Virus record (IMG/VR): IMGVR_UViG_3300005405_000309
DNA length: 64,000 nucleotides
Direction: 5' to 3' (one strand)
DNA from: an uncultured virus (IMG/VR IMGVR_UViG_3300005405_000309)
Lineage: Duplodnaviria > Heunggongvirae > Uroviricota > Caudoviricetes
Shown here: positions 1,745-62,472 of the stretch, piece by piece
Layout of the letters: each line of letters starts with the position of its first letter
Position numbering within the stretch: position 1 is the stretch's first letter
Notes under the pieces: generated by a model
What the model saw: only the letters and a program-made list of their open reading frames with translations
The model's database searches: none
Told to the model about the DNA's origin: nothing
Program-made: the position numbers and the translations under genes

Positions 1745-1746
1745 GG

Positions 1747-3099: not shown

Positions 3100-3123
3100 G
3101 ATTGGCTCCAATCGGTTGTAGTG

Positions 3124-3378: not shown

Positions 3379-3440
3379 TGTAACTCCTCCTTTCCTGGGA
3401 CTCCTAGGAATATCAATGGTTCTTGGGGTTGTGAACCTTC

Positions 3441-3680
3441 TCAATTCACAAACGCTACTGATGGAAACGCCCATCCTTCTTCATCCTCTTCAATAAGGTA
3501 TGCGTCTCCATTTTTGCTTTTCTCCTTAATAGTTACCTCTGTACCTAAATGAACGTCCATTTCAACAGGTATAGGTGGGTCTGTCATTATGTCATAGAGG
3601 TCATCCTCTCCACCAACACCAAATTGTTCAGCTAACTCCTCATAAGTTTTAAGCATTACCTTTTGCCCATTTTCAAACAT
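3441..3680 (-). CDS. ISL3 passenger, small acidic protein (paralog of 48480-48722)
   Basis: MFENGQK... is near-identical to the ORF at 48480; RBS present. Confidence 0.85.
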   Translation of the reverse strand: MFENGQKVMLKTYEELAEQFGVGGEDDLYDIMTDPPIPVEMDVHLGTEVTIKEKSKNGDAYLIEEDEEGWAFPSVAFVN

Positions 3681-3820
3681 TTTAATTCCCCCTAATTCTT
3701 AGCTTTCCTAATGATAAATATAACACAACAAAGGAGGTATATCAACACGATAATCCGATTTACACTATACAGATACACTTAACGTATTATATCAATATCA
3801 ACATGATAATCCGAATACCC

Positions 3821-14332: not shown

Positions 14333-14631
14333 GATAACACTATATAGCAAAGGCCTGTATAGTTCAATCATTTATATAACTTTTTATACCAAAAAACGAG
14401 GAGAGAACAGAAAACCCGGGCCTTCGAGCTATTCGAATTCTATGGTGGAAGGGAAAGTTGCTGATCCATATATGGTAATTATAGTCAATGAAAATAAACA
14501 CACGTTTTTACATGTGTATAAGTTCATCGGTTTAAGGACGTTCCCAGAAGCAGTCTATCGTCAGGCGGGGGAAGACTACACATCGGCTTAAAAAGAGAGA
14601 GGCCCCGAAGGACCTCCGCACGATTCGCAAA

Positions 14632-15785: not shown

Positions 15786-15811
15786 CCGACGCTTAAGTAC
15801 ATAGATTATTA

Positions 15812-16513
15812 TTAAGGCCATATTGTCTCTTCTGGTACGACCCAGATATCCACACCACCGTGAGGATTACGTACCTTCTTAGCAGCAGGGACGAAGGTGG
15901 GGAAGTTTGCTAATATATCTTGAGCACGGGATTGACTTCTTCCATGTTTATGTGCCCATTCTTTTGCCGTGATGTATCCCTCTGGGATATCCAAGAGAGG
16001 CCTATCTCTTTTTACGTCTTGGGCTGCTTTGGCTGCGGCTAACCGTAACGCTTTGATGTGTTTGGTTTGGCACTCAGGGCATCGTTTTTGGCGATCGGTT
16101 TTAGCGGCAAAGCTGATACCGCAGTCTTTACAGATTCTTGGTATATGTTGTTCCTCATTATTGATTGGCTCATCCGGTTCGTCTTGTGAATCTGATTTGT
16201 ATTGCGCATCATCCACGACTGTTGCTTGGGGGACTTTTTCAGGGGAGGCTTGTTCTGCGGTATCGGTTTCGATGAGACGTAAAAATATATTTGGCAATGC
16301 ACTAAATCTCTTTTGAGCTACAGCTTTAAGCTGCCCGGTATTAATACATAACTGGTCGTAATCCATGGTTCTTACGGCCCGTTCAAGATTACGAATGAGT
16401 TCCATAGTTTCATTTTCCCATGACTTAGACCAATTTATCATAACAGCTCTTTTTAATTCGGCAGATTTCGCTCGGTCAAGGAGCTGTGATATAGATCTAT
16501 GTTTCTTTTTCAC
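15812..16513 (-). CDS. Hypothetical protein with Zn ribbon
   Basis: CKDCG..CPEC; GGAGG RBS. Confidence 0.7.
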   Translation of the reverse strand: MKKKHRSISQLLDRAKSAELKRAVMINWSKSWENETMELIRNLERAVRTMDYDQLCINTGQLKAVAQKRFSALPNIFLRLIETDTAEQASPEKVPQATVVDDAQYKSDSQDEPDEPINNEEQHIPRICKDCGISFAAKTDRQKRCPECQTKHIKALRLAAAKAAQDVKRDRPLLDIPEGYITAKEWAHKHGRSQSRAQDILANFPTFVPAAKKVRNPHGGVDIWVVPEETIWP

Positions 16514-16689
16514 TATTTTCCTCCTTATTAGTCTTGATATTTATCATTATTTAGATTATATTATAGTCAAGATCTTCCTTCAAGAAAATGTCGCTGTTAA
16601 GGCGTGGATTAAAATGAAAACAAATTTATAGCAAAAAGGAGAGGCGAACCCTCTCCTTTTTACTATAATACAAAAACCAAATCGAAATT

Positions 16690-17230
16690 CTGCTCATTGA
16701 GTGGTTTTCGAGGCACTTTTTCGATTTTAAGATTCCACGAACCGGTTGGTGTTAGGTCTACCTCGGCTTCGTGAAGAACTTCAATTCTTGATGCTTCAAA
16801 GCCAAATTCCTCGTTAATAAGAATTTTCGATTGTTCGTCGGACAGAACCGTGCTACTATCAAAATGCCCTATAAGAGATTCGGCGGCTTTTCCAACTTCC
16901 TATAATCTTCCTCTGACATATGAGTGCCGGTTGGGTAAGCCTTTTTTTGCGGGACTACATTCCCCTTGCTTTTCATCGTTTGTTGGTAAAGCCATTCAAT
17001 CCCCTTCATGGTGTGCTTTTTCTAGAATTCTGCGATTTCTTCTGCTTTACCATTCGTTTCGGAAAAGATCGGGCAGTTAAGATAGACATATTCGATACGC
17101 TCATAGCATTCCAGTGTGGTTGTTAGGTCCACCAGTTTGTCAAATTCATCCTCCTACATTGATTGATTTCCGCCTTTACCTGTCCGCTCGTTTCGCGCTC
17201 CCAAGAGCTCTATCAAGGCGTTGAGATATG
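16690..17230 (-). pseudogene. Degraded gene with several frameshifts and stops
   Basis: Protein-like fragments in different frames (DEFDKLVD..YERIEYVY; LSDEQSKILINEEFGFE). Boundaries approximate. Confidence 0.4.
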
Positions 17231-17240
17231 GACCTGTGTT

Positions 17241-17573
17241 TCAAGCTGACTCCTCCTGTAGTTCAACAATTGCACCCCGGGATTCTAAATCTTCTAACTG
17301 ACATAAAACCATTGGTAAACACTCCAAAAATGATCCATCTTCAAAAACCATCTTGACACCATACACTGTAGTAAAGCCCTCTTCCGCTGAGCGTATTGTT
17401 GTAACATACTTGTATGGGTATCGTTTTAATATTTTGTTTCTCGCCTTAATTTCTTGCTCTATATACATTTCTTGTTGGCGTGTCGATATTTTAGGATTTG
17501 CACTCCATGTTGACCTGGAGTTAAATTTATCAAGATTTATAGATGCTTTGCAATAATCATCAGCCATTGACAT
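17241..17573 (-). CDS. Hypothetical protein
   Basis: GAGGGG RBS. Confidence 0.65.
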   Translation of the reverse strand: MSMADDYCKASINLDKFNSRSTWSANPKISTRQQEMYIEQEIKARNKILKRYPYKYVTTIRSAEEGFTTVYGVKMVFEDGSFLECLPMVLCQLEDLESRGAIVELQEESA

Positions 17574-17590
17574 CTTAATCCCCTCTTTCT

Positions 17591-18454
17591 TTATCCCTCA
17601 TTGATCCCATAGCTTTCTTCACGCGCGATCTCCGAAACCATACGCTGTAGTTTACGAGGGTCAATCCCATGCTGTGTCTCAATATAAGGAGTCCATTTAT
17701 CAATAAGAGCCCAAGATGATTCGTCTTCCTTTTCCCATGCAAGATCTGAATCTCCGTGATAATAGTTGTAAGCCTCTAAAGCTTCCGGAGGAATTACGGT
17801 TTCAGTTAACTCTTTTTGCCGAGCCTCTTTTCGAGCTTGATTGAGTGCCGATTTTTCCTCCTGCTCTTTTTTGATCTGTTCAACCTTTTCTTTGGCAATA
17901 GACACAACATAGATCCGGGCAAACGATCCTAAAGCACCTGGGCGAATCGCGCTTGCAACACCAATATGATTGATCTTGTCCCAAGGTAATTCAACACCAT
18001 CGACTGAGTATTTTAAATTGGGATAGCCATCAAAATCACCCTTATCCTCGACATCAACCTCGATATGTCCGGCTGGAATCCTTTTCCGTAATTTGGCAGC
18101 TTCCGCTTTCATAGCCTCTAGTAAGGGATTGTCCACAGCTTCCCGTTCAGCTTGATACGCAGCAGCTCGGGCATTATACCTTGCCTGTTGTTCGGCTTGC
18201 AACTTGTTATACTCATCCACTAGTGCGGCTAAATCGGGGCGGCTGTCGTATCTTATGCCGACAGGCTTACCAATGGTTGCAACATGTTCAAACCAAACAA
18301 GTTTTTGGCTGTTAATTTCCTTTGGCTTACCGCCAGTTAGTTTAAGCCCAGCAACAGGTCCGCAGTCCTTGTCGGCATCATAGCTTATGCTTATGCCAAA
18401 AGCTTCACCAGTTTCATCCCATTTGTAGTATTCCTTGACGACTTCATTTGCCAT
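17591..18454 (-). CDS. Hypothetical protein
   Basis: 287 aa, GAGGAG RBS, TTGACA promoter upstream. Confidence 0.75.
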   Translation of the reverse strand: MANEVVKEYYKWDETGEAFGISISYDADKDCGPVAGLKLTGGKPKEINSQKLVWFEHVATIGKPVGIRYDSRPDLAALVDEYNKLQAEQQARYNARAAAYQAEREAVDNPLLEAMKAEAAKLRKRIPAGHIEVDVEDKGDFDGYPNLKYSVDGVELPWDKINHIGVASAIRPGALGSFARIYVVSIAKEKVEQIKKEQEEKSALNQARKEARQKELTETVIPPEALEAYNYYHGDSDLAWEKEDESSWALIDKWTPYIETQHGIDPRKLQRMVSEIAREESYGINEG

Positions 18455-18523
18455 TTTATATTCTCCTCTCGCCCCGCCCCATCCAGGCTGTCGGGTTCAT
18501 GTAATCTCTTGCTGTTAATACTA

Positions 18524-18565
18524 TTAACAGCGTATCGTACAATTTGTCAAGCGATAACGCTGTTA
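18524..18565 (-). promoter_or_regulatory. Promoter with inverted-repeat operator
   Basis: TTAACAGCG...CGCTGTTAA brackets a minus-strand TTGACA. Confidence 0.5.
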
Positions 18566-18834: not shown

Positions 18835-19475
18835 GGCTATCCGGATTATATGGTGGAAAGGTAGTATTCAATTACCAGTAATCTCAAGTGACCATTTGTT
18901 AATTACATCATGACCTAATTCTTGTTCATCACAACGAACTGCTAAAAATTGAATCCCTTTTTCTGTATAATAAATCAAATAAGGATGTTCAACTTCATCA
19001 CGATTTAGGAAACCTAAAAAACTCAGCCAAACCTCATCTATGTAATGGAATATCCAATCGAAGAATAACTCCGCTTCGCCCCTATCCCGATAAATTGAGC
19101 GAACACATAATGACCAATAGGATAAACGTTCATTATAAATTAGAGAAGAGAAATGTCCTAAAACACCAGTGTCATCAGAAAACGAATTAAGCATTGTATC
19201 CCATTTCTCTTTCAAGAAGAAGTCATGAGACGGTAATGTTGAACATTTCTTATTTACTCCTATCATATACTCAAGCACATCTATAACATCATTAGGAGTA
19301 TCCTTTTTTAAATTGAATCGAATGTTTAATTCTGCAAAATCACCCATATTCACACCAGCCTTATATTCACATATCGGGTATTCGGATTTTATACTTCCAC
19401 CATAAAATCCGATTTAGCAATTATAATCTATATGATGCCTTAAGAGTATAATTCCACCACATAATCCGCAGAGCC
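18835..19475. mobile_element. Non-autonomous ISL3-type cassette with one passenger gene
   Basis: IRs GGCTATCCGGATTATATGGTGG and CCACCACATAATCCGCAGAGCC. TSD ATATTTTC at 18827-18834 and 19476-19483. Confidence 0.9.
18868..19353 (-). CDS. Cassette passenger, phage-like hypothetical protein
   Basis: 161-aa ORF filling the cassette. Confidence 0.75.
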   Translation of the reverse strand: MNMGDFAELNIRFNLKKDTPNDVIDVLEYMIGVNKKCSTLPSHDFFLKEKWDTMLNSFSDDTGVLGHFSSLIYNERLSYWSLCVRSIYRDRGEAELFFDWIFHYIDEVWLSFLGFLNRDEVEHPYLIYYTEKGIQFLAVRCDEQELGHDVINKWSLEITGN

Positions 19476-29144: not shown

Positions 29145-29166
29145 GGCTCTTCGGATTATATGGCGG
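29145..29166. repeat. Orphan ISL3-type terminal IR
   Basis: GGCTCTTCGGATTATATGGCGG; no partner end found. Confidence 0.8.
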
Positions 29167-29181
29167 TATGACAAATATTTA

Positions 29182-47809: not shown

Positions 47810-48017
47810 AAAAAAGAGGCTTATGTAAAATCGCCTAAAAATGGCAACGTTTAACATAAGCCTCTTGTATTTTTAAAATTTCAAGAATCCCCGAAATAAT
47901 CCAGAGATAGAAATATTGGTGAATCCGAAGTAATCCGAATTCTAAACTCTCATTCGCACCAATCCAGTAGCACGAAGAAACTCTATCGCAAAATGCGAAG
48001 GAAAATAGTAATAATAT
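47810..48017 (-). ncRNA. Conserved structured leader/attenuator, copy E
   Basis: TGcTATAAT at 48024-48032, shared core, terminator 47810-47866. Confidence 0.75.
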
Positions 48018-48051
48018 AAACTTATTATAGCATGGTTTTTTACGAAAATCT

Positions 48052-48473
48052 AAGGTTTTCTCCAGCCGATTTACGTAATCCCTAAAAATGTTACGAATAG
48101 ATTTTTCATCCAAACCTATTTCATCTGCAAGAAGACTAACGAAAGTACGCTTTAATGATTGCTGTTCTATGTACTCAATGAGCCTTTTAGTGCAGCCACG
48201 TTTATCATCCGTGCCAGGTAAAGGTTCATAGAACGTCTGCCCACATTACCTGCATTTATAACGCAGCCGGTGAACTTCAATTCCAACTCTCTTGCCGTGC
48301 ATGGGTAAATCCAAAATGAGTTGAACACGCTTTGTGTGCTTGTAGAGATTGGCTTTAGCACCACACTGGGTACAGAAAAGAGGTGGTTTAATCGTTTCCA
48401 CCCCCACTTTGTAAGCATCATCAGATTCTTGGATATTTAGGACACTGTATTCGGGTAGATTAAGTATGTTCAT
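48052..48473 (-). pseudogene. ISL3 transposase remnant
   Basis: Homologous to 50440-51525; in-frame TAA after YKCR; truncated after DYVNRLEKT. Confidence 0.9.
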
Positions 48474-48479
48474 TAGGTT

Positions 48480-48722
48480 CTACTCCTTAAACGCTACTAC
48501 TGGAAACGCCCATCCTTCTTCATCTTCTTCAATAAGGTATGAGTCCTCATTATAATTGCTTTTCTCCTTGATGGTTACTTCAGTACCTAAGAAAACATCC
48601 ATTTCAACAGGTATAGGAGGGTCTGTCATTATGTCGTAAAAATTATCTTCCCCACCGACCCCAAATTGTTCGGCTAACTCCTCATAAGTTTTTAACATTA
48701 ACTTTTGACCATTTTCAAACAT
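48480..48722 (-). CDS. ISL3 passenger, paralog of 3441-3680
   Basis: MFENGQK...; GGAGG RBS. Confidence 0.85.
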   Translation of the reverse strand: MFENGQKLMLKTYEELAEQFGVGGEDNFYDIMTDPPIPVEMDVFLGTEVTIKEKSNYNEDSYLIEEDEEGWAFPVVAFKE

Positions 48723-49001
48723 TTTCGTTTCCTCCTAAATATGAAATACTTTCTAAGTGTTAATCTACTTCCCCTACTTGAATATCGCATTTCCCACAAT
48801 ACAGTGCACGTAATAACCATCTATATGGTTCTTGTCAATTCCGTATACTGTTTTTAAATCTTCACCCTTATTATTAACCTTGAGTTTTGCCACAACAGAT
48901 ATTTGCCTATTTATCGTTTCCGCACTTAGGACATTTCAACCTCGTACTATCCATATGAACAATCAACTCCTATTCGAGGATAGCCTTTTGAATACTGGAT
49001 T

Positions 49002-49202
49002 TTATGTGTTTAGGTCAAATGGAGGCAAACACAAAGTGTTTCTAGTATCGGGCAAAATCTTGAATTCTTTATTACATTCACTACAATAAGCATGAGTAAG
49101 AATTTCAAAACCGTCTTCAATAAGGATACTTTGTATACTATTACATTTACACTCAGGACAAATAACAGCTACAGGTTTATATTCCAAAATAAACACCCCC
49201 AT
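49002..49202 (-). CDS. Small Zn-ribbon protein
   Basis: CPEC...CSEC. Confidence 0.55.
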   Translation of the reverse strand: MGVFILEYKPVAVICPECKCNSIQSILIEDGFEILTHAYCSECNKEFKILPDTRNTLCLPPFDLNT

Positions 49203-49398
49203 GAAATTATTTTGCCACTAAACAAAGCAAGTGTCCACCATATAATCCGATCTTACATTGAATGACAATGACATTAAAACTCAATGCTTTCCAATAAAAG
49301 GATAAGTGTGAAAAAATGATTTGCGAACAATTTCACCTTTTTCTTTTTTGGAACGGTTGTTCAAAATTGAAGTTCGCGATTTGAAATAGCCATCCGGA

Positions 49399-50208
49399 TC
49401 ACGGACATTGCATCTCACGGATACTAGCCAGTATCATCTGCAAAAAGATCAATTCTACTCTGCTGAAAAGTCGCACCTCATCTGTCCGAAGTGGTAAGAT
49501 AAAAACATTTAAGACTTTCACTGCCTCTTGTATAGAAGTTGTTTGCAAGCAGAAATGATCAATAATCTCTATTTCCTGAATTGAGCTGAGATAGTCCCGT
49601 AGTTGGCGCTTGTGCGCGACGAGATTCAAATCCTTGAGTTGTAATAATCCTTCGAAATCCTGCACAGCAGCAAGCACATCATGAGGTGGACATTCCATCT
49701 GAAGTAATGTCTCTGTTCGATCAAAAATGGATCTTCTGATATCAGATACTCTTTTTTCGACAGATGAACATATCGCACGGCATTTGTCACCTAGCTTATT
49801 GCACTGCTTAATATCATCATAGTCCGTGGCATACGATAAAGTAATTTCTATCTGTGAGTACAATCTATGCATTTCTTCAATAAATGTATCCATGTGGAGA
49901 ATGAGGTCTTCGCTTGTGGCCAAAGCCTCCAAAGCCTTAATGCCATCGGAAAGAACATTTTTTTCGTAAGGCGTATTGGTTCTCCCTATAGTACGTTCGA
50001 CCCTTCTCCCGGTTAAGTAGTTCTTGTATTCTTGCGGGCTAAGTATACCCGCCAAAAAACCAGCTGCTTCCATTTCTCTAAGCCTGTCGAACGTGTCGGT
50101 ATCGGGCCACCGCTTCTTGAACCTGTAGCCCTCTAACGTCAGTCGCTCTAAACGTTTATAATCAAGGTGAGCTTGGAAGGCCCTAATGAGCCGGGTAACG
50201 ATATTCAT
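49399..50208 (-). CDS. Hypothetical protein
   Basis: 269 aa, AGGAG RBS. Confidence 0.7.
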   Translation of the reverse strand: MNIVTRLIRAFQAHLDYKRLERLTLEGYRFKKRWPDTDTFDRLREMEAAGFLAGILSPQEYKNYLTGRRVERTIGRTNTPYEKNVLSDGIKALEALATSEDLILHMDTFIEEMHRLYSQIEITLSYATDYDDIKQCNKLGDKCRAICSSVEKRVSDIRRSIFDRTETLLQMECPPHDVLAAVQDFEGLLQLKDLNLVAHKRQLRDYLSSIQEIEIIDHFCLQTTSIQEAVKVLNVFILPLRTDEVRLFSRVELIFLQMILASIREMQCP

Positions 50209-50439
50209 GGATTACTCCTTTCCGCCCCAGTTTCCTAATCTGTAACAGGTCTTTGCAATCGTGCTATTTATCAGCTCTCTTGTCTGTAGTACTTGCAATT
50301 ACCTTGAATCTGCAACATGCCAACCCCTTCCCTCCCATCTGCTTTCACAGAATTCTATGGTACTATGGGTTAGTCGGATTTCCTATAATGCATTTGCTTA
50401 CCTTGCTCGTTCCATTGCTTGAGTTCGCATACTGATTCC

Positions 50440-51525
50440 TCAGACATTATAGGACCTCAGCTGTTCTATTAGTATACTTATCATCAAACTCGCCAAGCTC
50501 TGACCCCCCGGAAGAGTCATGTTCTTCAGAGCAGTAAGCAAGTCCTTAAAAGCAAATATTAAGTGCTCAGGAATCTGCTCACGCCACTCTTTAAGGCGAA
50601 TTAGTGCTTCCTGCTGGCTTTGAGTCTCCCATATCCGATAAAACTCTTCCTTAAGCTCATAGGCCAGTCCTAAGTCCTTTAGCGTGCCGGTCCAAGCACT
50701 AAGGATTAATTGTTCTCTGATATCTAGTTTTGCTTTCCGTTTGAGCAAGATATGCCTATCGTGCATAAGAGTTCGCCGTTCCTTGGGAGTCAGCCCTTCT
50801 CGTACAGACTTCCGCACAGTTTCTAACGCTTGGTTAGCCATCTTAACGACGTGGAACTTATCGACCACGACTTGAGCCTGGGGCAATACAAGGCTAACTG
50901 CATCACGATAAGGTCTCCACATATCCATGGCAACGTACCTGATCCGTTGACGGTCAGGTAGACTTTGTAAGTAGGTAATCACTGTCGGTTTGTTGCGATC
51001 CGGAAGAATGTCGATGATGGTGTTATCTTGAATATTAGTTATCACACACCTGGGCTTAATAATGTAAATTTCGTCAATCCCAAGCCATTGAGGAGTTTGA
51101 ACCCGAAATGTTTTCTCTAACCGATTCACATAATCCCTAAAGATATTGCGGATCGTCTTTTCATCCACTCCAATTTCATCGGCAAGACTTACAAAAGTAC
51201 GTTTTAAGGACTGTTTTTCTATGTAGCCTACAAGCCGTTTAGTGCATCCCCGTTTATCGTCTGTGTGAGGCAGAACCTCATAAAAGGTCTGCCCACACTC
51301 ACGGCATTTATATCGCTGACGGTTCACATGGATACCTACACGCTTGCCATGCATGGGTAGATCCATGATGAGTTGCTTATGCTTAGTATGTTTGTAGAGA
51401 TTAGCCTTACAACCACATTGAGTACAACAAAGAGGTGGATTAGCTGTCTCCACCTCGATTCGGTAAGCCTCGTCACTTTCTTGGACGTTTATGACGTTGT
51501 ATTCAGGTAAATTTAGTATATTCAT
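50440..51525 (-). pseudogene. ISL3 transposase, C-terminally truncated
   Basis: GIDE, AMDMW and VDKFH present. Homology ends at TALKN (~50520), before the third catalytic (E) motif. Confidence 0.88.
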
Positions 51526-51539
51526 TATGTCTTACTTCC

Positions 51540-51752
51540 TTATAACTCCATATTTTTCGCTTTATCATCTATGTATTTTTCAAATCCTTTAATTGTTGGC
51601 CTAACATTTTTATCAACACAATCGCTTATATACCTTTTAAAACCCTCTCCTATATTTTCTAGCCAATCGGAACCATATCCTCCTGCATAAGCACTCCGTT
51701 CATACTTTTCAAGCTTATCTAATAACTTTTTGCTCATCACTTTATTTTCCAT
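51540..51752 (-). CDS. Small hypothetical protein (probable ISL3 passenger)
   Basis: Ends 14 bp before the transposase start. Confidence 0.6.
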   Translation of the reverse strand: MENKVMSKKLLDKLEKYERSAYAGGYGSDWLENIGEGFKRYISDCVDKNVRPTIKGFEKYIDDKAKNMEL

Positions 51753-51945
51753 TTACAACTTCAATAGAATCAACCTGCGGAGAACCAACATCCGAAGCAT
51801 TAGCCAATTTATTTTCCTGCTCTACAAATTTATCAATTGCCTTAAGACCAGCTTCATTTTCGTCCTTTGCATTAACTGTAATAGTTCGTTTCACAAAGCG
51901 TGTGCAAAATGACCCAACTTCAACACTATATTTCATGAAAATCAT
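51742..51945 (-). CDS. Small hypothetical protein (probable ISL3 passenger)
   Basis: Overlaps the next gene; RBS present. Confidence 0.6.
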   Translation of the reverse strand: MIFMKYSVEVGSFCTRFVKRTITVNAKDENEAGLKAIDKFVEQENKLANASDVGSPQVDSIEVVNGK

Positions 51946-51960
51946 CTTCCTTTTAAAAAT

Positions 51961-52110
51961 GGCTCAATAGCTTCACTTTCGTTTCGGCTCGTTTGTTCCC
52001 CGCCCTACGCTTAAACCTAATGTTACCATTTCGGCTCCAAGGACTAGGTACAGGCTACTGGTTAGGTATTACCTGATAGGCTTTTCCTACTGTATGTTAA
52101 TAGCTTACTA
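51961..52110 (-). other. Possible group II intron 5' (domain I) fragment
   Basis: Minus strand AGCTATTAACATACAGTAGG..AACCAGTAGCC..CTTGGAGCCGAA..GGTAAC..TTTAAGCGTAGG resembles, from memory, bacterial group II intron D1. No RT gene. Confidence 0.4.
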
Positions 52111-52381
52111 ATGAAAATAGAATTGCTTCAATTTCCAAGAGGAAACATCACGCATTTGCGTGCTGCTTCGCAGCTCGCGCCTGTGAGGCTATTATAGCCC
52201 TTTTTTCCAATCCATTCCACTTGCTGTTTTCATAATATAAATCCTCCATCAATTTATAAGGCTATCCGGATATCAGTCCATGTATGTTGAATTATTTGCG
52301 CTGTAATAGAACCATACATATATCGATGCATATTAGCCTATCCAATATCGACCGTGTGTAGGAATCGAAGTCTAATTTTTC

Positions 52382-54363: not shown

Positions 54364-54663
54364 TTATCCCCCTTCTTTTGTGTACATAGCCCGATTGATC
54401 GCCATATAAACCAAATCGGGACGGGTTCGATTATCAAACTCTCTGCAGAGTTCATTTAATCCCCTTGCCATCTCTACTTCCAATTGGAAAAACTTCCGGA
54501 TAGGTCGCGGCGGTAAATCTTTTGGAGGCCTCGTCGGGTTCTTTAAATAAGCCTCTACAATTTCATTGAAAACTTTATTATCGCTCTTACCCTCCCTGGA
54601 TGCCGTTTTTTCTAGATAGTTTGATTGTTCTTCTGTAAGGGCTATCAATAGACGAAATCCCAT
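54364..54663 (-). CDS. Tandem ribbon-helix-helix-like protein
   Basis: Two beta-alpha-alpha-like units; abuts the VWA gene. Confidence 0.5.
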   Translation of the reverse strand: MGFRLLIALTEEQSNYLEKTASREGKSDNKVFNEIVEAYLKNPTRPPKDLPPRPIRKFFQLEVEMARGLNELCREFDNRTRPDLVYMAINRAMYTKEGG

Positions 54664-56129
54664 TATTCAAACACTCCCTGATATAAAGATGCAGCATCAC
54701 GCTCTAAACACTGAATTTTTAAGACTTTATCTGATATGTCATCAAGTACTGGTTGATTTTCTTGACTAAACAATACCCCGAAAAGACGAAATCCCAACTT
54801 CTTCTTATCTTCCGTTATCCGGTTTGTGAATTCAACGCTACTTTTAAACTCTCCATCTGTTAAAAGTACCATATCTCCACCCTGGGCTAAATCGTCCTCG
54901 AATATCTCTAATGCATGCACAATCGCCTCGGCATAATAGGTGCCATGTCCAAAATATGCTGTAAGGAGAAGTTGCTTGATGTCCTCATCCCTAGAATCGC
55001 CAGTGAAACGTAAAACCATCCGCTCGCCAATTCCACTGAATAATATTACATGGAAATCCTGCTTACGTGCTTTTGCAATCTCATAAAGTCCTAATGCCAA
55101 AGCCTTTTCATCACGCTCTTTTCCTGGGGTAATCGACTCAGATACATCAATGAGAACAACCATAGAACCGCGTTTCTTCTCCGGTACCTCAGGGGTCTGA
55201 ATCCCCCATAATACCCCTTTCTTATAGCGGTCCATGAATAATTCTTGACCCAAAGAGTGTGCTCCTAACGCCATTTCACTCGGTAAAAGTGCACTTATAT
55301 CGTTACTCATACCGAACTCTATATCATTTTCTATCCCCCGCTCCCGGATTGTTCGGTTCGCGAGGCTCATCATTCGCCCAATCTGATCTGCAAAACCCTG
55401 AATATCGAGTTGCCGATCTAGAAAATGACCTAGGCAGAGGGGATTAGCTTGCCAGCGTGGCCGTTTCTGCCCTAAACTATGCGACAGTCTTTCGGCATCC
55501 AGAACATCCCCCAAAACAGCTGCCACATCCAAATTTATTCGCGCCTCGTCGATGGTTACATTTGCAAGGCCCTGACCTAATCCCTGTTGGTCCTTCGAGC
55601 GTACACCTGACGACTTAGTTTGAATCTGCTCTTCGTATTGTTCTGGAGCTGGCGAGATGCTTACAAATAACCGCTTTATAAACTCCCATAATCGCTTCAT
55701 AAAGCTATCCTTAGTGTGCGTTATCTCAAATCGCTCCTTAGAATGTAGGAGTTCAGTTGCTTCATTATCAGTACCCTGGTTCATCGTTTGGTTACGATAA
55801 AAGGTTGCCCATCGCTCTAGGGCTCTTTGAGTGGCAACATAAGCAAGCCCTGGATTGCTAACTGTCTTCTTGCGTAGCTTATGAAAAAAGGCTGAGCGAA
55901 AAAAAGCATCTAACCAGAGAAAGCGAACCATGTCCTCCATTGTGGCGTTTAATGGCTTGGTTAGGGTAACACCAACAAATAGTAGTAAGGTAAAAAGATC
56001 TTCTGACATTGATCTCATTAAGGGATCTGTCTTTTTCTTATGATGGCCTCTATTTTCCCACAAAGATTCATCTCTTAACCAGCGTTGATGTTCTTGATTA
56101 ATTGGCACATTGCTTAATCGTTGGCTCAA
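54663..56129 (-). CDS. VWA-domain protein (ViaA-like)
   Basis: LLPSE, IDVSES MIDAS, GT and LTDG motifs. Confidence 0.85.
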   Translation of the reverse strand: MSQRLSNVPINQEHQRWLRDESLWENRGHHKKKTDPLMRSMSEDLFTLLLFVGVTLTKPLNATMEDMVRFLWLDAFFRSAFFHKLRKKTVSNPGLAYVATQRALERWATFYRNQTMNQGTDNEATELLHSKERFEITHTKDSFMKRLWEFIKRLFVSISPAPEQYEEQIQTKSSGVRSKDQQGLGQGLANVTIDEARINLDVAAVLGDVLDAERLSHSLGQKRPRWQANPLCLGHFLDRQLDIQGFADQIGRMMSLANRTIRERGIENDIEFGMSNDISALLPSEMALGAHSLGQELFMDRYKKGVLWGIQTPEVPEKKRGSMVVLIDVSESITPGKERDEKALALGLYEIAKARKQDFHVILFSGIGERMVLRFTGDSRDEDIKQLLLTAYFGHGTYYAEAIVHALEIFEDDLAQGGDMVLLTDGEFKSSVEFTNRITEDKKKLGFRLFGVLFSQENQPVLDDISDKVLKIQCLERDAASLYQGVFE

Positions 56130-56374
56130 ATAAAATCATCACCTTGCTGTTTGAATAACACCCTCTGCTCATTTTCGATCTCCATTTTCATATCTTCGTA
56201 TCCATTCCACTCACTCATCGTCACGCATTCAAGCTCATGTGTTGCAAATCGAACTACTGTTAAGGTGAAATCTCCATTGGCCAACGGACGGACAAGGGAC
56301 ACTACGCCTCCTCCATTGGGGGTATCAATACATTGACCTAATTTTGGCAAGAAATTTCCTCTCATCTTCTTCAC
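56126..56374 (-). CDS. Small hypothetical protein
   Basis: Coupled between the ATPase and VWA genes. Confidence 0.55.
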   Translation of the reverse strand: MKKMRGNFLPKLGQCIDTPNGGGVVSLVRPLANGDFTLTVVRFATHELECVTMSEWNGYEDMKMEIENEQRVLFKQQGDDFI

Positions 56375-57549
56375 CCACTCTTTTTTAAACTTTTGAGGTC
56401 GTCTAAATCATCCTCGATCCATGCAATAGCACCTTCAATACGACTTATAAAAATAGTTATAAAGGAGGTTTCCTGCTGGTGTTTAGCCTGCTCCAATAAG
56501 AAATTATCGTCCTTACAATATGACCGAAACAGTTTTAAAAGCCCAAGCCCCTTGCTTATTCTTATCGATGAATTTAATCGTTTGTAATCTTCCAATAATT
56601 GCGCAGCCTCTAATGCGTGCTGTTCTGTTTGCGCCATAGAAGGCCAGATCGTCCGATAGACTAAAAAGCGCATTTTATCAATTTCTTCAGGAATATTCCA
56701 TAACACATGTTGTAATATAAGTAGATCCTCTGACTCAACATTCATGCGCCCTTGGAAATACGCCTCGGCCTTAATAAGCGTAGCCGCTTGGATAAACTTT
56801 CGCGTAGATCGGTCAATGCCCTGAAACTCCAGTTGCTCCCAAAGATGAATTAAAACTTCCCTTGTGGTTCCTAATTCAACACGCTTTACCATATCCTGCG
56901 CAGATTTTAATTCATCCATCGTGATCTTTGTCTCAAATGCATGAATCTCTCCTCGCGCCTCTGCTTCGATCCGGTCTAAAAGCCTGTTGCCATAGTTACT
57001 AATGCTTAACCTCTTTACTGAATACCGCAAGGCAAACCGGTCCCAAAACGCTTCCAATCCATCCCCATTTTTCGGCAGTTCATTCGACGCCCCAATAAGG
57101 CTCATTAGGGGTACTTGGATAGTGGTCCTCCCATTCACAAAACGACGATTCTCCATCATATCAAGATTCATGTTTAATAAACCTGGATTTGTTTTAAAAA
57201 TCTCGTCCAGAAAGACCACGTCGGCCACTGGCATTTTTTGATCAATAACATGTTCAAAACTACCTTCTTCGAAGTATTTCTTTATTGCAACCGGCCCTAC
57301 CAGTTCATCTTCTTTAGTATACTTACCTACTAACCAGTGAAAGAATTGTCCTCCCACCCTGTTGCAGATAGCCGTGATTATTGATGTCTTCCCCTCTCCC
57401 CAAGGTCCGATCAAAGCAACGTGCTGCTTTGAAAGAATGGCAAGGAGGATTCCATGAATAACATCTTCTTGGTCAAAATATTGATCGTTGACTTCTTCTT
57501 CTATCTTACGGAGGAGATGACATATGGAAGTTCGTTCGTTTCTGTCCAC
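56371..57549 (-). CDS. MoxR/RavA-like AAA+ ATPase
   Basis: GPWGEGKT, FLDEIFK, GASNELP and AFWDRF motifs. Confidence 0.9.
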   Translation of the reverse strand: MDRNERTSICHLLRKIEEEVNDQYFDQEDVIHGILLAILSKQHVALIGPWGEGKTSIITAICNRVGGQFFHWLVGKYTKEDELVGPVAIKKYFEEGSFEHVIDQKMPVADVVFLDEIFKTNPGLLNMNLDMMENRRFVNGRTTIQVPLMSLIGASNELPKNGDGLEAFWDRFALRYSVKRLSISNYGNRLLDRIEAEARGEIHAFETKITMDELKSAQDMVKRVELGTTREVLIHLWEQLEFQGIDRSTRKFIQAATLIKAEAYFQGRMNVESEDLLILQHVLWNIPEEIDKMRFLVYRTIWPSMAQTEQHALEAAQLLEDYKRLNSSIRISKGLGLLKLFRSYCKDDNFLLEQAKHQQETSFITIFISRIEGAIAWIEDDLDDLKSLKKSG

Positions 57550-57989
57550 CCAGACACCTTCTTTCAGCCTTAAGTTATGTATTAATTATATATCTATATA
57601 TTAAGAAGTCAACACTTTTGAGTGTTGACTAAAATGTTATTTCTAATTATGATAAGGGTTTTATAATATCCAGATTATATGGTGGAAAACCTTCTGATAA
57701 TTTCTAGTTACAATAATCGTTAAACCTTAAGAGAGGCAACATTAGAGACTAGAAAAAATAGACTGTAAAACCCTCGCCATACCCCACAGAACAAACATGT
57801 TTACACTTACAGCGTTCAAATTTTTCATCGAGAGACCGCATAATGACGAATATCGTCTTTCCCTGTGAGATTTCCCGGAACTAAATTTAGGATACCTTTT
57901 AGAAAAAAACGGCTCTTCGGATTATATGGTGGAATAGGAATATGCCATAATCCAAATTTGGAGATTTGTGTAAATATATAAATTGCCCA

Positions 57990-58307
57990 TTATTGGGTAC
58001 TAATTCCGAATAATCTATTCATACCCTGGCGTGTAACGCGCCAATTCCCTTTTGATTTTCTCGCTTCATTGCTACCGAAACGATTTTCGGACAAATATCG
58101 TTTCAATGTAGGCTCAGTAGCATTTGACCATTTTGTAGCTGCTTCAGGCACTGACATCACATCTGTAAGGGATATGATGTTATCCGGTCCGTAAGCTGTG
58201 CCATCTGGAGAAACTAATACAATCTGACCGTAACTACTAGAAGCGTGTCCCTTGGTTAGCCTCCAACCCTCCCATGGACCAGTGCCTTTCCAAATGTCAC
58301 TCATCAA
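57990..58307 (-). CDS. HTH-domain protein (cassette passenger)
   Basis: VMSVPEAATKW...EARKSKGNWRVTRQGMNRLFG. Confidence 0.75.
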   Translation of the reverse strand: MMSDIWKGTGPWEGWRLTKGHASSSYGQIVLVSPDGTAYGPDNIISLTDVMSVPEAATKWSNATEPTLKRYLSENRFGSNEARKSKGNWRVTRQGMNRLFGISTQ

Positions 58308-59290
58308 TTTTCCTCCTTAAACCTGTCGGGGTAGGCTGCTCTTATGGCTTTTTTGGGGTTCTGAGAATAGTATTTTTGCATTGGAGCAGAGAGTCCGTAT
58401 TTCTGAAAGGTTTCAATTTTGATATTTAAAATATCTGTTTCAGGGTTAAGCCTAAGCTTTTCTTCGACCATCCATTTTATCGCAACAATAGCTCTTTCCT
58501 CGTTCCAATAATTTCTCGAAACTACATTTAGTTCCCAAGGTTTATATTTATCGGGATAAGCATCATCTAGTGCGCTAAAAGGGCTGGATTCATACACTAC
58601 ATCTAACATTCCCTCAAGCCCGTTGTCGATAAAGACTTGCTTTGTAAGTTTATTAATAATATCCTTGTTATTCCACTGTAATCTCTCATTAAGTAGCCAT
58701 TTTGTTGCACTTATGGCTGTATTTTTATTCCAAAATTCCCTTGTTACGCTGCTCAGCTCCCAGGGTAAATATTCTTTAGGATATGCCAAGTCCAACGCCT
58801 CAAATACCCCGTTTACTTTAAATAAAACGGTCCTTAATCCATTATCGCCAAATACTTGTGCTTTCAGATTCTTTTTTATATCATCTCTATTCCATTTTAG
58901 TTTTTCTTCGATCAGCCATTTTGTAGCCTGTATCATCGTATCGTTGTTCCAGAAGCCCATTGGCGTACTTGCCAATTCCCATTCCTTAAATCTCCCAGGA
59001 TAGGCAGCATCGAGCGCCTTGAATGGAGTGTTTTCATAAACGATAGTCAGCATTCCGTAGAGTTTATTATCAATGTATATTTTTCCGGAATGCTTTTTTA
59101 TGAAATCATCATCATTCCAACTTAGAATATTTTCAAACATATAACGAGTAACCGTGATAGCGTTTTCAGGTGCTTCTGGGAGTTGCCAAAACCCTTTAGG
59201 GAATTTTTTTATATCTCTCTTTAGTACTAGCTTATAGATTTCTACAGCTGTTAGTCCAAACACCTTAGTTGCAACACTTAGTTTGGCCAT
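58304..59290 (-). CDS. DUF4046-like repeat protein (cassette passenger)
   Basis: About four repeats of ATKWLIEEKL.W..F..NGL..AYP..WEL. Confidence 0.75.
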   Translation of the reverse strand: MAKLSVATKVFGLTAVEIYKLVLKRDIKKFPKGFWQLPEAPENAITVTRYMFENILSWNDDDFIKKHSGKIYIDNKLYGMLTIVYENTPFKALDAAYPGRFKEWELASTPMGFWNNDTMIQATKWLIEEKLKWNRDDIKKNLKAQVFGDNGLRTVLFKVNGVFEALDLAYPKEYLPWELSSVTREFWNKNTAISATKWLLNERLQWNNKDIINKLTKQVFIDNGLEGMLDVVYESSPFSALDDAYPDKYKPWELNVVSRNYWNEERAIVAIKWMVEEKLRLNPETDILNIKIETFQKYGLSAPMQKYYSQNPKKAIRAAYPDRFKEEN

Positions 59291-59375
59291 GAATAGCCCC
59301 CCTTTTATTCGCCTATTCCTCCGAAAGTACACCTAAACATTAGATGCACTTTCGGGAGAATAATCTCTTTGGTGA

Positions 59376-59552
59376 TCAGTACGCTTTTTCCAGTTCAAGC
59401 ATTTCCTCAAAACTGATTACCTTGTCAAGTTCGGCGAATGCGCTAAAATCTGAACGAACACTTGATTCTCCTGAGTCGATGTATTTTCCATCTTGTTCTA
59501 ATTCGGCTTGAAGCTCGCGCCATTCTTTGTAAAGGTTAGTTAGCTTCATCAT
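59376..59552 (-). CDS. Small hypothetical protein (cassette passenger)
   Basis: AGGAG RBS before MMKLT. Confidence 0.6.
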   Translation of the reverse strand: MMKLTNLYKEWRELQAELEQDGKYIDSGESSVRSDFSAFAELDKVISFEEMLELEKAY

Positions 59553-59626
59553 ATCGTAAAACTCCTTCTTGCCCCGCCTCATATAGGCTGCCGGGTTGTT
59601 CTGCCGTATCAATTGCTGTTAAGATA

Positions 59627-59666
59627 ATTATAAGCGAATTCGCTCATAATATCAAGCGAATTCGCT
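59627..59666 (-). promoter_or_regulatory. Sigma-A promoter with two palindromic operators
   Basis: TTGATA-17 bp-TATAAT; AGCGAATTCGCT at 59633-59644 and 59655-59666. Confidence 0.8.
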
Positions 59667-59728
59667 TATAATTCAAAATTTAAACTGGAAATTAAAATTG
59701 CATTTTCCACCATAAAATCCGGATAGCC

Positions 59729-60202
59729 AAAAAAACTACCATATATAAAAGTAAACAGTGAAAACAAAAAGACGACTAACGTTTTCATAGGCGGTATTAC
59801 AGATGCTACGGTAACGTTCAACTTGTTGAAATATAGCCACCCTATTACGACTAAACTACTTAACGTAAGTATCTTCACGAATGCTCTGAAATTGATAGCT
59901 TGTGGGATTGGCTTAAAAAACACATACGCCAATAGATATATAATGCGATTCCCAGTGGTTATCGGTACATAAGTTAATTCTAAAATATCCTTTTGATTAA
60001 GCCGAACTAGACCGTTAGGTTTAGTTATTAGATAGTCTGAAATAGACAACTCGGAAGAGGTAAACCATTTTTGGAAATCAGGAAAATCGGACATCGCAAC
60101 AAAAAAACTCATTTTCGTATCATTTCTAAGTGTTACATTAACAACGTATTTAAGTTGTTGGTTCATAGAATTAAGGAGATTTTTAAACGATATGGTTTTC
60201 AT
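59729..60202 (-). pseudogene. Membrane-protein gene interrupted by the cassette
   Basis: Reads ..YGSFF into the IR; continues in frame at 57902 as LKGILNLVPG... Confidence 0.75.
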
Positions 60203-60263
60203 TTTGTATACCTCCCCGAAATTTATTCTACATTTTTACATAACTGGTACAACTACTCCTAAA

Positions 60264-62348
60264 TTAGAGCAGATAATCACTGGGTTTTCCGCAAGAACTC
60301 ACAATAACAGACGTTTTAGCACGGGTTAAGGCAACGTAAAACAGAGATCGCTCTTGCAAATCTTGTTCATCTGTCAAAGCTGCACCCATGGGAACGATCC
60401 CTTTATTTACTCCGGCAATGAAGATGTGCTCAAACTCCAGCCCTTTTACACGATGCATCGTGGCGATTCTAAGCCCCTGTTTTGTACGATCATCAGTGTT
60501 TTGGCGTGGTAACCGATATGTTAACACTCCCAAGTTATTAAGTTGTTGTTCATACTCATGTAATTGTTTTGAGGTACGTGCGACTAAGCAAGAATCTTTC
60601 AAGGCCTCTTTAGGCAGCATCATTATACGTTCTGCAATGCCCTCGACCTCTGCATTTGAATTAATATAATTAAGGATTTCCGGCTTAGTCCCTTTTCTAA
60701 GTGCTATCGTTTCACTTGAAGTATCGAAACCATCATCTAGATCATCAACTGGCAACCCTTCTAACAGACGAATTGCAAACTTCCGTATTTCCTCTGGTGT
60801 TCGGTAACTTAATTTAAGCTTGCGACTTCGCCCACGAATGTTTATTCCACAAATTGACAATGATGTTTTGCGTGGATAAATACGTTGGTGAGAATCTCCT
60901 GCGATCATAAGATTATTCTCATGGTCCAAACCCGCCAAAACCGAAAGGAGCTTTAACGCCTGAATTCCCATATCTTGTGCCTCATCAACGACAACGGATC
61001 GATAAGGAGAACTCCATTCTCCCTTTTCGATGAGCTCACGCACTAATCTCATGGCATCAGCCGGTTCGATGTATCTCTCAGTTCGCAGAATTTCTCTATA
61101 AGCTTGAAAAACACTCCACGCCTCTTGTCTAGCTTTCTCATTTAGAGACTTTCCACGTCCAGCCCTTGAAGCACGAAGATAGTCCTCCAACGTTAAAATC
61201 CCTTGGGCAAGTATAATACGGTCCCATTCTTCACTTAAAAATGAATATGTCAACGACTGATGTACGTTAAGAATTGCTTGTTTCCAAAGTTCTTGTTTCT
61301 TATCATTGTCATATAGCAGCTGCAACGTCGGTTCTAATTTATGCAAAACCCCATTCAGCCATTGATCCAGGTTAACAACATCTAGACGTACAAATGCTTC
61401 TGGCTCAGTAATTTCAGACAGTCGCTCTCTAATATCGGACGCTAAGTTACGACTAAATGTCGTAACTAAAACCCGATCGCTTGATTGTGTATATATTCGT
61501 TCCACAAGCACCTTGGCTCTATGCAATATGACCACGGTTTTCCCCGTTCCCGCTTCCCCTAAAACACGCACTGCCCCGCTCCAATTCTTTTCAACTAATA
61601 CTCGCTGACTTGGATGCAAAAAAACCCTCCACGCTTCAAGGGGAGACCTTAAAGCCTCACGAAAGCTATGATCTCCCCCCGAAACAAACGATTGAAGCGA
61701 CAAGGGATTCGTCGCCGCTGCACTATAGTCCTCCGTATCAACGAGAACTGGCAAACTGTCGTATGAGTGTTCGTTCAATAGTGTTTCCATGGGGGTTCCT
61801 GCGGCCAATCGAAGTAAGGACTCGTAAACAGTTTCAGATAAACTGTAATAAACAGAACTTAACTCGTCGGCTGTCGCGACATTTTTGATCCATAGCAACA
61901 AATCTTCGGGAACCCCAAGTTTAAGAAGAAGTCGGTCATCTTGATTCGCAAAGATCCCTTGTTTAAACGGATCGGGCATCGATTCTGTCTTCTGCGCCTC
62001 AGACAACTTTCCAGAAACCTGAATCGCACCGGTATAGGAATTAACGAGGCAACGGTGATCTCGTGCCCACTCATAGGCAGATTGTTGTAATGATACACAT
62101 AACATAAGATATAGGTTTCCTCTGTCCGGCTTTTTGACCACACCATAGATACTCGATGTTATGCAAACCGCTCGATAATTGTTATCTAGACTCTCCGGAA
62201 TCTTTTCATAGATAATCCCTGAAGCAGTTGGTATTTCCCCAAATTTATAAAGAAATTTCTCAACCACCTTTCGCTCTTTTAATGGCATCGTTTGTACTTG
62301 TTGAATAACGGATCTATGAATTAACGTTTGTGGCACAATAGGATTCAT
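60264..62348 (-). CDS. UvrD/Rep-like SF1 helicase
   Basis: FLHPSQ, GEAGTGKT, VDEAQD, GDSHQRIY, HRVKGLEF and YVALTRA motifs. RBS supports MNPIV. Confidence 0.92.
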   Translation of the reverse strand: MNPIVPQTLIHRSVIQQVQTMPLKERKVVEKFLYKFGEIPTASGIIYEKIPESLDNNYRAVCITSSIYGVVKKPDRGNLYLMLCVSLQQSAYEWARDHRCLVNSYTGAIQVSGKLSEAQKTESMPDPFKQGIFANQDDRLLLKLGVPEDLLLWIKNVATADELSSVYYSLSETVYESLLRLAAGTPMETLLNEHSYDSLPVLVDTEDYSAAATNPLSLQSFVSGGDHSFREALRSPLEAWRVFLHPSQRVLVEKNWSGAVRVLGEAGTGKTVVILHRAKVLVERIYTQSSDRVLVTTFSRNLASDIRERLSEITEPEAFVRLDVVNLDQWLNGVLHKLEPTLQLLYDNDKKQELWKQAILNVHQSLTYSFLSEEWDRIILAQGILTLEDYLRASRAGRGKSLNEKARQEAWSVFQAYREILRTERYIEPADAMRLVRELIEKGEWSSPYRSVVVDEAQDMGIQALKLLSVLAGLDHENNLMIAGDSHQRIYPRKTSLSICGINIRGRSRKLKLSYRTPEEIRKFAIRLLEGLPVDDLDDGFDTSSETIALRKGTKPEILNYINSNAEVEGIAERIMMLPKEALKDSCLVARTSKQLHEYEQQLNNLGVLTYRLPRQNTDDRTKQGLRIATMHRVKGLEFEHIFIAGVNKGIVPMGAALTDEQDLQERSLFYVALTRAKTSVIVSSCGKPSDYLL

Positions 62349-62472
62349 AGATTCACCTCCCCAATAATACGACCATGTTAAAACTAGAAACTTGAGGATT
62401 TTATAGAATAATGGACTACTTGAAAATAACATTTTACGCGGACCGCTTGAATAGCAGTTGGCCAAAAAACAC

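Follow-up and report, generated by a model that had tools for sequence, protein, structure and literature searches.

An 1,818-bp transposase-free cassette with ISL3-type ends, probably a mobile insertion cassette, splits a membrane-protein gene in the DNA of an uncultured virus

How did three genes with a promoter of their own come to lie inside a membrane-protein gene? The question is raised by a stretch of 64,000 nucleotides from an uncultured virus of the Caudoviricetes (IMG/VR record IMGVR_UViG_3300005405_000309), referred to below, at its full length, as the window. An earlier note, made from the sequence alone, had described an 1,818-bp cassette at 57911-59728 with inverted repeats and a target-site duplication (TSD), and had proposed that such ends capture different genes, so that the locus would belong to a gene-shuffling system and not be a single deletion derivative. 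The description was borne out; the proposal holds for the end family and is not shown for this cassette. The cassette is very probably a non-autonomous element of the ISL3 family of insertion sequences (IS), of the kind called a mobile insertion cassette (MIC). Since there is no transposase gene inside it, it needs an ISL3 transposase from elsewhere, and we infer that it was mobilised in trans.

The first evidence comes from the ends (Table 1). The two 8-bp direct copies of AAAAAAAC that flank the cassette are identical, and the inverted repeats, although imperfect, pair at 21 of 24 nucleotides between 57911-57934 and 59705-59728 (pair I2, 88%). The left-end 24-mer has five matches in the window at up to three mismatches and none in any of 100 dinucleotide-preserving shuffles, and a 15-nt end core matches seven times where no match is expected. 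Both the terminal repeats of about 24 nt, which start in the manner of ISL3 (GGCTCTTCG or GGGTATYCGGA), and the AT-rich 8-bp duplication at both flanks agree with membership of that family; for the published members ISArsp7 and ISPst2, Table 3 of PMC6305408 gives like ends (GGCTCTTCG..., GGGTATCCGGAATTT...) and AT-rich duplications of 8 bp. No transposase gene was found inside the cassette, either in the list of open reading frames (ORFs) or in a Pfam scan of the interval. What lies between the IS-type repeats is three passenger ORFs, each with homologues elsewhere.

The second line of evidence is the split gene. Its ORF, with a start at 60202, enters the repeat after 158 codons, the last of which ends at 59729; the same reading frame resumes at 57902 downward, with LKGILNLVPGNLTGKDDIRHYAVSR up to a stop. 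When the 158-aa part was used as a query, the matches were, besides the protein of the window itself, four homologues (198-238 aa, 65-77% identity), and in all four of the latter the junction is continuous (...F(L/F)(L/F)KG(A/I)L(D/E)L(V/I)(P/F)G...). In the homologue from the genome SbF1, the target site occurs once and the residue count is equal (YGVFLLKG vs YGSFF|LKG), from which it follows that the insertion was precise, that the duplication is real, and that an intact target exists. The cassette was thus inserted as a unit, the target being precisely restored with respect to the intact homologues. The earlier note had named two findings as fatal to its reading, namely an insert present at all homologous loci or a coincidental A-rich duplication without any intact target gene, and neither holds, since intact targets exist.

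The claim that the gene continues in frame beyond the cassette needs to be qualified. When the homologues P0002-P0005 were aligned by a local tblastn with the region minus the insert and one TSD copy, 133 of 182 residues were identical in one frame (P0002), but the last 30 residues (20 of 30 identical) lay in the next frame. The 3' remnant is damaged only by a single +2 frameshift, which falls 25 codons in, within a TCTCTC run near 57830-57835. Because the last 30 codons align only in another frame, the gene rejoined by removing the cassette would still be broken. The frameshift is that of one assembly, and the Logan contig that agrees with it may derive from the same data.

Could the two ends have arrived separately, as solo ends or as miniature inverted-repeat transposable element (MITE) insertions on either side of resident genes, so that the 1.8 kb never moved as one piece? 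The window is rich in solo or degenerate ends (14427, 29145, 49233, 52260, and 57664), and a related unit termed C660, described below, has no matching duplication. However, the flanking 8-mers are identical, the excision of the interval and one copy restores frame and residues with none gained or lost, and the 1.8 kb is absent from four homologues; an origin from independent ends is, consequently, highly improbable.

An end-pattern scan of three public collections gave 19 stretches in species-representative genomes, 30 in metagenome contigs, and 6 in viral contigs; the genomes included those of Paenibacillus, Bacillus, Siminovitchia, and Anoxybacillus and a Desulfosporosinus metagenome-assembled genome (MAG). 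Two end types emerge from the fetched loci. In full-length copies, the B-end (GGCTCTTCGGATT.TATGGTGGAAT...) lies upstream of the transposase gene and is, therefore, the left inverted repeat (IRL), while the A-end (GG(C/G)TATYCGGATT.TATGGTGGAAA-N10-AATTTCCAG) directly follows the transposase stop codon and is, therefore, the right inverted repeat (IRR). The cassette has one of each, and about 45 nt inside its A-end are common to the IRR region of full-length copies. Transposases with the Pfam domains DDE_Tnp_ISL3, Zn_ribbon_ISL3, and HTH_Tnp_ISL3 lie between the same end types at three loci (L036, L016, and L055, the last a 2,625-bp IS), so that a DDE transposase is tied to these ends outside the cassette, as it also is in broken window copies beside such an end. 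The closest autonomous element (L036:2406-4779, 2,374 bp) encodes a 442-aa transposase that is 77.6% identical over 335 aa to a truncated copy in the window, and by our count its ends match those of the cassette at 23/24 and 21/24 positions. In the family of the SbF1 genome, the end core was found in 1 of 69 genomes, SbF1 itself; this MAG is incomplete, and a search of it for an ISL3 transposase gave nothing.

The window has its own ISL3 copies. Those with the cassette's end type form a broken cluster at 47835-52300, in which two small ORFs precede each transposase copy; at 52260 there is a partial end. An apparently intact ISL3 IS of 2,076 bp lies at 1745-3820 and encodes a 454-aa transposase, with a 116-aa ORF and a small ORF of the 80-aa type upstream; its ends, however, share only their first ~13 nt with those of the cassette (16/24 positions by our count). 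This IS has a second inner end copy at 3737-3762, about 60 nt inside its right end. Solo end-like sequences, with neither a partner end nor a duplication, occur at 14427-14450 (four mismatches to the consensus) and 29145-29168 (two mismatches).

What does the cassette carry? The three ORFs, all on the minus strand, are open and have ribosome-binding sites, and they encode, as had been proposed, a small protein, a DUF4046 repeat protein, and a helix-turn-helix protein, the last of the HTH_59 family. They are preceded by a promoter of their own, TTGATA-17-TATAAT at 59655-59627 on the minus strand, which agrees with the consensus at 11 of 12 positions. Between the promoter and the first gene is a leader motif, CCCGNCAGCC-N7-GGCGGGGC, with two matches in the window against none expected. 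The small ORF has no Pfam match; the hairpin that follows it is not succeeded by a U tract and was not scored as a terminator.

The 328-aa protein matches Pfam DUF4046 (PF13255) with an E-value of 6e-7 and 30.4 bits, the gathering cut-off being 22.8. A homologue search gave 114 matches carrying PF13255, with a variable number of repeats, and the Atlas neighbours are DUF4046 clusters. Its AlphaFold2 model (pLDDT 91.4) is all helical, with four repeats, and has no Foldseek match at E<=1e-3; the best VIA-align score was Z 4.7, to TetR-type helix-turn-helix domains on the last repeat, which is below the level that is meaningful for helical proteins. Not one of 50,697 phage records contains DUF4046; of 72,556 records of plasmids, 265 do, 205 of them from Bacillus and 50 from Priestia, frequently with more than one copy each. 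Genes for FtsK/SpoIIIE and replication-relaxation proteins are found nearby in two conjugative plasmids of B. thuringiensis. No viral contig matched a pattern for the protein, and in the class of SbF1, relatives occur in 3 of 112 genomes, as short forms only. The term DUF4046 was absent from the literature searched. Two further observations concern this family. In the B. thuringiensis plasmid pHS18-4 (L073, 2312-5506), a 1,064-aa hypothetical protein, composed almost entirely of DUF4046 repeats, adjoins a replication initiation gene. In what is probably the source sample, a contig of 11,217 nt at ~428x depth matches the A-end of the cassette over 26 nt and also carries a DUF4046 gene, a diverged one that is probably P0052 (50% identity); that sample may, then, be rich in another element that combines DUF4046 with ends of this family.

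The 104-aa protein matches Pfam HTH_59 (PF20038) with an E-value of 5.5e-14 and 52.3 bits, the gathering cut-off being 27. The closest homologues of the DUF4046 protein (82% identity) and of the HTH_59 protein (71%) are on one and the same 8,350-nt contig, and the gene pair therefore exists elsewhere. PADLOC gave no match to a defence model for any cargo protein or the target gene, NCBIfam none for the cargo, and Rfam only sub-threshold hairpin matches; a search of the PDB sequences with the HTH_59 protein gave nothing relevant.

The history of the cargo is illuminated by two relatives. The C660 element, which has the same architecture as the cassette, is 2,181 bp long and lies on a contig of the Desulfosporosinus MAG (L012:4001-6181). 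It consists, in order, of an A-end, a promoter between the palindromes AGCGTTATCGCT / AGCGATAACGCT, the same leader, a ribosome-binding site, genes for 286 and 235 aa, a gene for a 62-aa HTH_59 protein, and a B-end. Because the element recurs at a distance of 79,284 bp on a single metagenome contig of 123,551 bp, and because IMG/VR lists a 79,361-bp version, the C660 replicon appears to be a circle of ~79 kb. By blastn and tblastx, it has only three stretches in common with the window. One, 59562-59733, is the A-end, promoter, and leader of the cassette, collinear and 70% identical. The others, 17592-18561 and 15809-16620, are the window's genes for 287 and 233 aa, of no known family, which have the same promoter and leader. 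C660 thus carries between ISL3 ends a two-gene unit that, in the window (15809-18561), has ~1 kb of extra DNA between its genes and around which, at 15.8-18.6 kb, no convincing ends were seen by eye.

The second relative is on a phage-like viral contig, L068, where the operators, promoter, and leader of C660, a 69-aa ORF, and an HTH_59 gene lie beside lysis genes; a search at up to seven mismatches gave no ISL3 end nearer than 3 kb. The earlier note had suggested looking in phages for the cargo without inverted repeats, and this is such a case as regards the promoter, leader, and HTH_59 gene but not the DUF4046 gene, which is lacking there. The search of viral contigs with the operator-promoter pattern gave five stretches, of which two are real (L068 and C660) and three are unrelated GC-rich DNA.

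What is conserved in the three loci is, to judge from these alignments, the regulated promoter, the leader, and the terminal HTH_59 gene, whereas the middle genes vary. The HTH_59 proteins of L068 and C660 are 76% identical, and their operators are common; that of the window is 42-44% identical to both, and the window operators differ at the centre. Because operators and HTH_59 proteins change together, the latter may be a repressor by which the cassette operon is autoregulated via the palindromes, an idea to which we give an even chance.

Another role for HTH_59 would be that of an excisionase driving movement by site-specific recombination, the inverted repeats being incidental. The cassette protein matches PHROG family 2655, annotated as excisionase, at 3.4e-7 (the C660 copy at 7.5e-16), and the C660 copy has a weak match to Pfam HTH_17. 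However, no integrase or recombinase is present in or beside the cassette, an 8-bp duplication at an unrelated A-rich site marks DDE transposition rather than recombination at attachment (att) sites, and cassettes of the same end family (641 bp, L049, and L028; see below) move without an HTH_59 gene. This explanation is, accordingly, barely tenable. The class of phage excisionase, or recombination directionality factor, was likewise rejected for the protein itself: there is no partner integrase with att sites, and the junctions have a transposition-type duplication.

How did the module come to lie between the ends? A simple explanation is deletion: an autonomous ISL3 IS, in which the operon already lay between the left end and the gene for the transposase, would have lost that gene, with no capture as a transposase-free unit. 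Full-length copies do usually carry small passenger ORFs in that position: L036 has three, L016 has genes for a TetR regulator and membrane proteins, and small ORFs also occur in three copies of the window (1745-3820, 48.5-49.2 kb, and 51.5-51.9 kb). ISPst2 (PMC6305408) and ISPpu12 (PMC4133298) are described as passenger carriers, and the ~45 nt shared with IRR regions would be retained in such a derivative. Yet among the loci fetched from the three collection scans, no transposase-bearing element has the cargo or the promoter module of the cassette. Moreover, because the L068 copy has no ends, the module must have been acquired from outside at some point. Origin by deletion is possible, then, but we doubt it.

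The A-end/promoter junction is collinear in two otherwise unrelated replicons, the window and C660; because of this, the comparison suggests that a module already assembled was captured once, in an ancestor, and that its middle genes were exchanged later, which fits better than repeated capture by the ends. It is here that the proposal of ends capturing different genes must be restricted: the shared A-end, promoter, and leader and the end-free L068 module fit one capture in the case of the cassette.

For the family as a whole, the ends do bound unrelated cargo. As had been claimed, the cargo of the window's other cassette, 641 bp long and located at 18835-19475, is a different one, a 161-aa ORF (phrog_4334 match, 2.9e-12). 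A 1,332-bp transposase-free cassette (L049:305-1636, TSD GAATAAAA) has genes for the toxin-antitoxin pair HicA/HicB and for an XRE regulator, which run inward from the B-end and thus in the opposite direction to those of the window cassette; a 431-bp one (L028, TSD CATTTATT) has an 84-aa ORF; and a 3,075-bp element with a transposase (L016, L030, L056, and L059) has the TetR regulator and membrane-protein genes. From our reading of the printed flanks of end-bounded copies, 18 have identical 8-bp flanks: 5 with a transposase, namely the four 3,075-bp copies and the L055 IS; 4 transposase-free with cargo ORFs; and 9 of MITE size. Because L016 and L030 have a common flank and those of L056 and L059 are reverse complements, these represent at most 16 independent insertions. 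The MITE-size copies measure 316-596 bp (L006 twice, L007, L010, L014, L019, L032, L052, and L071), the one in L007 being filled by a 99-aa ORF. Five bounded pairs lack a duplication (the C660 element, L027, L033, L036, and L048). In the 641-bp cassette, a truncated end and the full inner end face each other in a 43-bp stretch at 19376-19418; a palindrome of two ends at L033:4971-5022, 52 bp long and isolated, is similar to it. These stretches could be either minimal elements or duplications of transposase-binding sites.

Several observations tell against a mobile, self-regulated cassette. Its two ends are unlike at 3 of 24 positions. Nowhere in the 64 kb of the window is there an intact cognate transposase, both copies with the cassette's end type being truncated or fragmented. 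Just one copy of the exact cassette is known, so that its movement is read from structure alone. The C660 relative has no target duplication (TTATTTAT vs TATATTTC), and not every member is thus a clean insertion. As to regulation, the repressor role is based on three loci, the second promoter copy in the window (18.5 kb) has no adjoining HTH_59 gene, and the leader has no significant fold (z +1.1). For 57400-60300, no DNA match was found in plasmids (near search) or phages (distant search). Among contigs of sequencing runs, one run, probably the source, carries the whole stretch as a single contig, and a second has only two 151-nt contigs, at 58214-58490; no contig bridging an empty site or a second site was present among these assembled contigs, which are silent on rare variants, and no near-identical replicon with an empty site came to light.

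One interpretation of these observations is that the MIC insertion can no longer move in its host and that the locus is a dead scar rather than part of an active gene-shuffling system. The broken transposase copies, the divergence of the ends, the frameshift in the 3' gene remnant, a degenerate solo end 197 bp away, and the lack of a second copy or an empty-site contig would all be explained in this way. Against it, the 8-bp duplication is still perfect, the remnant is otherwise stop-free and as similar to its homologues as stated above, and the cargo ORFs are open behind their ribosome-binding sites and near-consensus promoter. Moreover, the search for a transposase spans the window alone, which falls ~14.5 kb short of the full 78.5-kb contig and covers nothing else of the host genome. 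On balance, we consider a fossil rather unlikely.

If the cassette is a MIC of the ISL3 family, as is very probable, its arrival can be pictured as follows. An ISL3 DDE transposase, supplied in trans, would recognise the IRL-type end at 57911 and the IRR-type end at 59728. A staggered cut of 8 bp in A-rich sequence, at codon 158 of a gene for a membrane protein of ~210 aa, would then lead to insertion and truncation of the gene. The cargo would be a ready-made accessory operon of plasmid or phage type, carried as a unit and consisting, in order, of a sigma-70 promoter between AAGCGAATTCGCTT palindromes, the leader, the 58-aa ORF, the hairpin, the four-repeat DUF4046 protein, and a translationally coupled HTH_59 gene, whose product may bind the palindromes and so autoregulate the operon.

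A transposase-free cassette with varied passengers is an already published concept. A MIC is defined in PMC6199540 as two IS-type inverted repeats without a transposase, with at least one coding sequence between them, 0.7-3 kb long and moved in trans; MIC231 and its kin (IS231/IS4 family) in the Bacillus cereus group (Chen 1999, De Palmenaer 2004) are described there as having varied passengers and a conserved region beside one end. A MIC with ISPfr11 termini is reported from Propionibacterium freudenreichii (PMC2909200). The cassette resembles these, as far as they are described in those sources, in its repeats, its lack of a transposase, its passenger genes, its size, and a conserved stretch beside one end. 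Unlike MIC231, it has ISL3 ends and 8-bp duplications, and its conserved parts are a full regulated promoter and leader, with a regulator gene at the other end. In the sources cited, ISPst2 has an ArsR regulator and a permease as passengers (PMC6305408, Table 3) and ISPpu12 has tnpA, the regulator tnpR, and two further ORFs (PMC4133298). The cassette shares with these the 24-nt ends (GGCTCTTCG... / GGGTATCCGGA...), AT-rich 8-bp duplications, and passengers that include a small transcriptional regulator, but they encode their own transposase and the cassette none, and its regulator is HTH_59. The MITE-size elements of Paenibacillus and metagenomes have the same A and B ends, ~45-nt subterminal stretches, and 8-bp duplications but little or no cargo. 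The L068 operon shares the twin-operator promoter, the leader, a small first ORF, and HTH_59 as the last gene, but its first ORF is not visibly related to that of the cassette. No description of an ISL3-derived MIC was found in the literature that pairs ISL3 with mobile insertion cassette, nor any paper combining ISL3, miniature inverted-repeat, and 8-bp; this concerns the texts searched, with subscription journals and ISfinder/TnPedia outside them, and we make no claim that such a MIC is unpublished.

As for the surroundings, a solo A-type end (57664-57714), for which no partner was found, lies 28 nt past the stop codon of the target gene, at a distance of 197 bp from the cassette; an insertion that preceded the cassette here may have left it as a scar. 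No relatives of the target gene were found in viral contigs. On one side of the insertion (54364-57549) are a gene pair for MoxR (bpMoxR domain) and vWA proteins and two small ORFs; on the other (60264-62465) is a gene for a 733-aa UvrD-type helicase with an N-terminal extension of ~280 aa, whose best PADLOC matches are GajB-like helicase models. The replicon, which resembles a plasmid or an integrative and conjugative element (ICE), also has NikA-like, DUF6908, and SLT+M23 peptidase genes, and the neighbourhood 54364-62465 may be that of a conflict system on such an element.

Table 1. Positions in the window of the cassette's parts, its target gene, and other features with ISL3-type ends or transposases
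Feature	Position	Strand	Basis or remark
Left TSD copy, AAAAAAAC	57903-57910		Sequence; comparison with SbF1 homologue
Right TSD copy, AAAAAAAC	59729-59736		Sequence; comparison with SbF1 homologue
B-type (IRL-type) end, GGCTCTTCGGATTATATGGTGGAA	57911-57934	+	End-pattern and inverted-repeat scans; 23/24 match to IRL of the autonomous IS in L036
A-type (IRR-type) end, reading inward GGCTATCCGGATTTTATGGTGGAA	59705-59728	-	End-pattern scans; conserved subterminal stretch to ~59681
Sigma-70-type promoter within two palindrome copies	59626-59673	-	Putative operators AAGCGAATTCGCTT; pair I3 (19-nt arms, 100% complementary), family D4
Conserved leader motif	59571-59595	-	Directly upstream of ribosome-binding site
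Small ORF, 58 aa	59376-59552	-	Unnamed conserved family; 54 representatives at E<=1e-3, best 82% identity
RNA hairpin, 16 bp, between small ORF and DUF4046 gene	59321-59355	-	-31.9 kcal/mol, z -5.5; 0/200 shuffles equally stable
DUF4046 protein, 328 aa	58304-59290	-	Pfam DUF4046; four helical repeats of ~74 aa
HTH_59 gene, 104 aa	57990-58304	-	Start codon overlaps DUF4046 stop; proposed repressor of cassette promoter
5' part of split membrane-protein gene, 158 codons	59729-60202	-	ORF list, homologue search, tblastn
3' remnant of split gene	57742-57902	-	25 in-frame codons and then 30 in another frame, to natural stop; +2 frameshift between them near 57830-57835
Solo A-type (IRR-type) end remnant, degenerate tip	57664-57714	+	48 nt, 75% complementary to cassette right end (pair I1); aligns with other A-ends
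Sister cassette, 641 bp	18835-19475		Same end family; TSD ATATTTTC; 161-aa ORF; inner end copy 19395-19418
C-terminally truncated ISL3 transposase, 361 aa, cognate type	50440-51525	-	DDE_Tnp_ISL3 2.4e-49; 77.6% identity to L036 transposase
Second broken ISL3 copy	47835-49256	-	TATGGTGGA-type end 49233-49256, two small ORFs, transposase fragments 47835-48473

What might such a cassette mean for the biology of its hosts? The MIC concept, best documented for IS231, is extended here to an ISL3 end family across Bacillota, and the locus is a clean, internally controlled example of how small transposase-free cassettes furnish the plasmid- or ICE-like elements of uncultured bacteria from groundwater with accessory operons ready for expression and, in the process, inactivate resident genes. 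Three uncharacterised families (DUF4046, HTH_59, and that of the 58-aa protein) are tied to one mobile, probably autoregulated operon, which gives a handle on their function. A more speculative idea, which we put forward as a long shot, is that, in a sub-lineage of ISL3 cassettes, a complete expression platform that represses itself has become fixed between the ends, its middle genes being swapped by homologous recombination with phage or plasmid modules. The arms for this may be the A-end with the twin-operator promoter and leader on one side and the HTH_59 repressor gene with the B-end on the opposite side. If this were true, the platform would be a transposable, regulated plug-in site that carries accessory genes between unrelated replicons, integron-like in its logic but built from a transposon.

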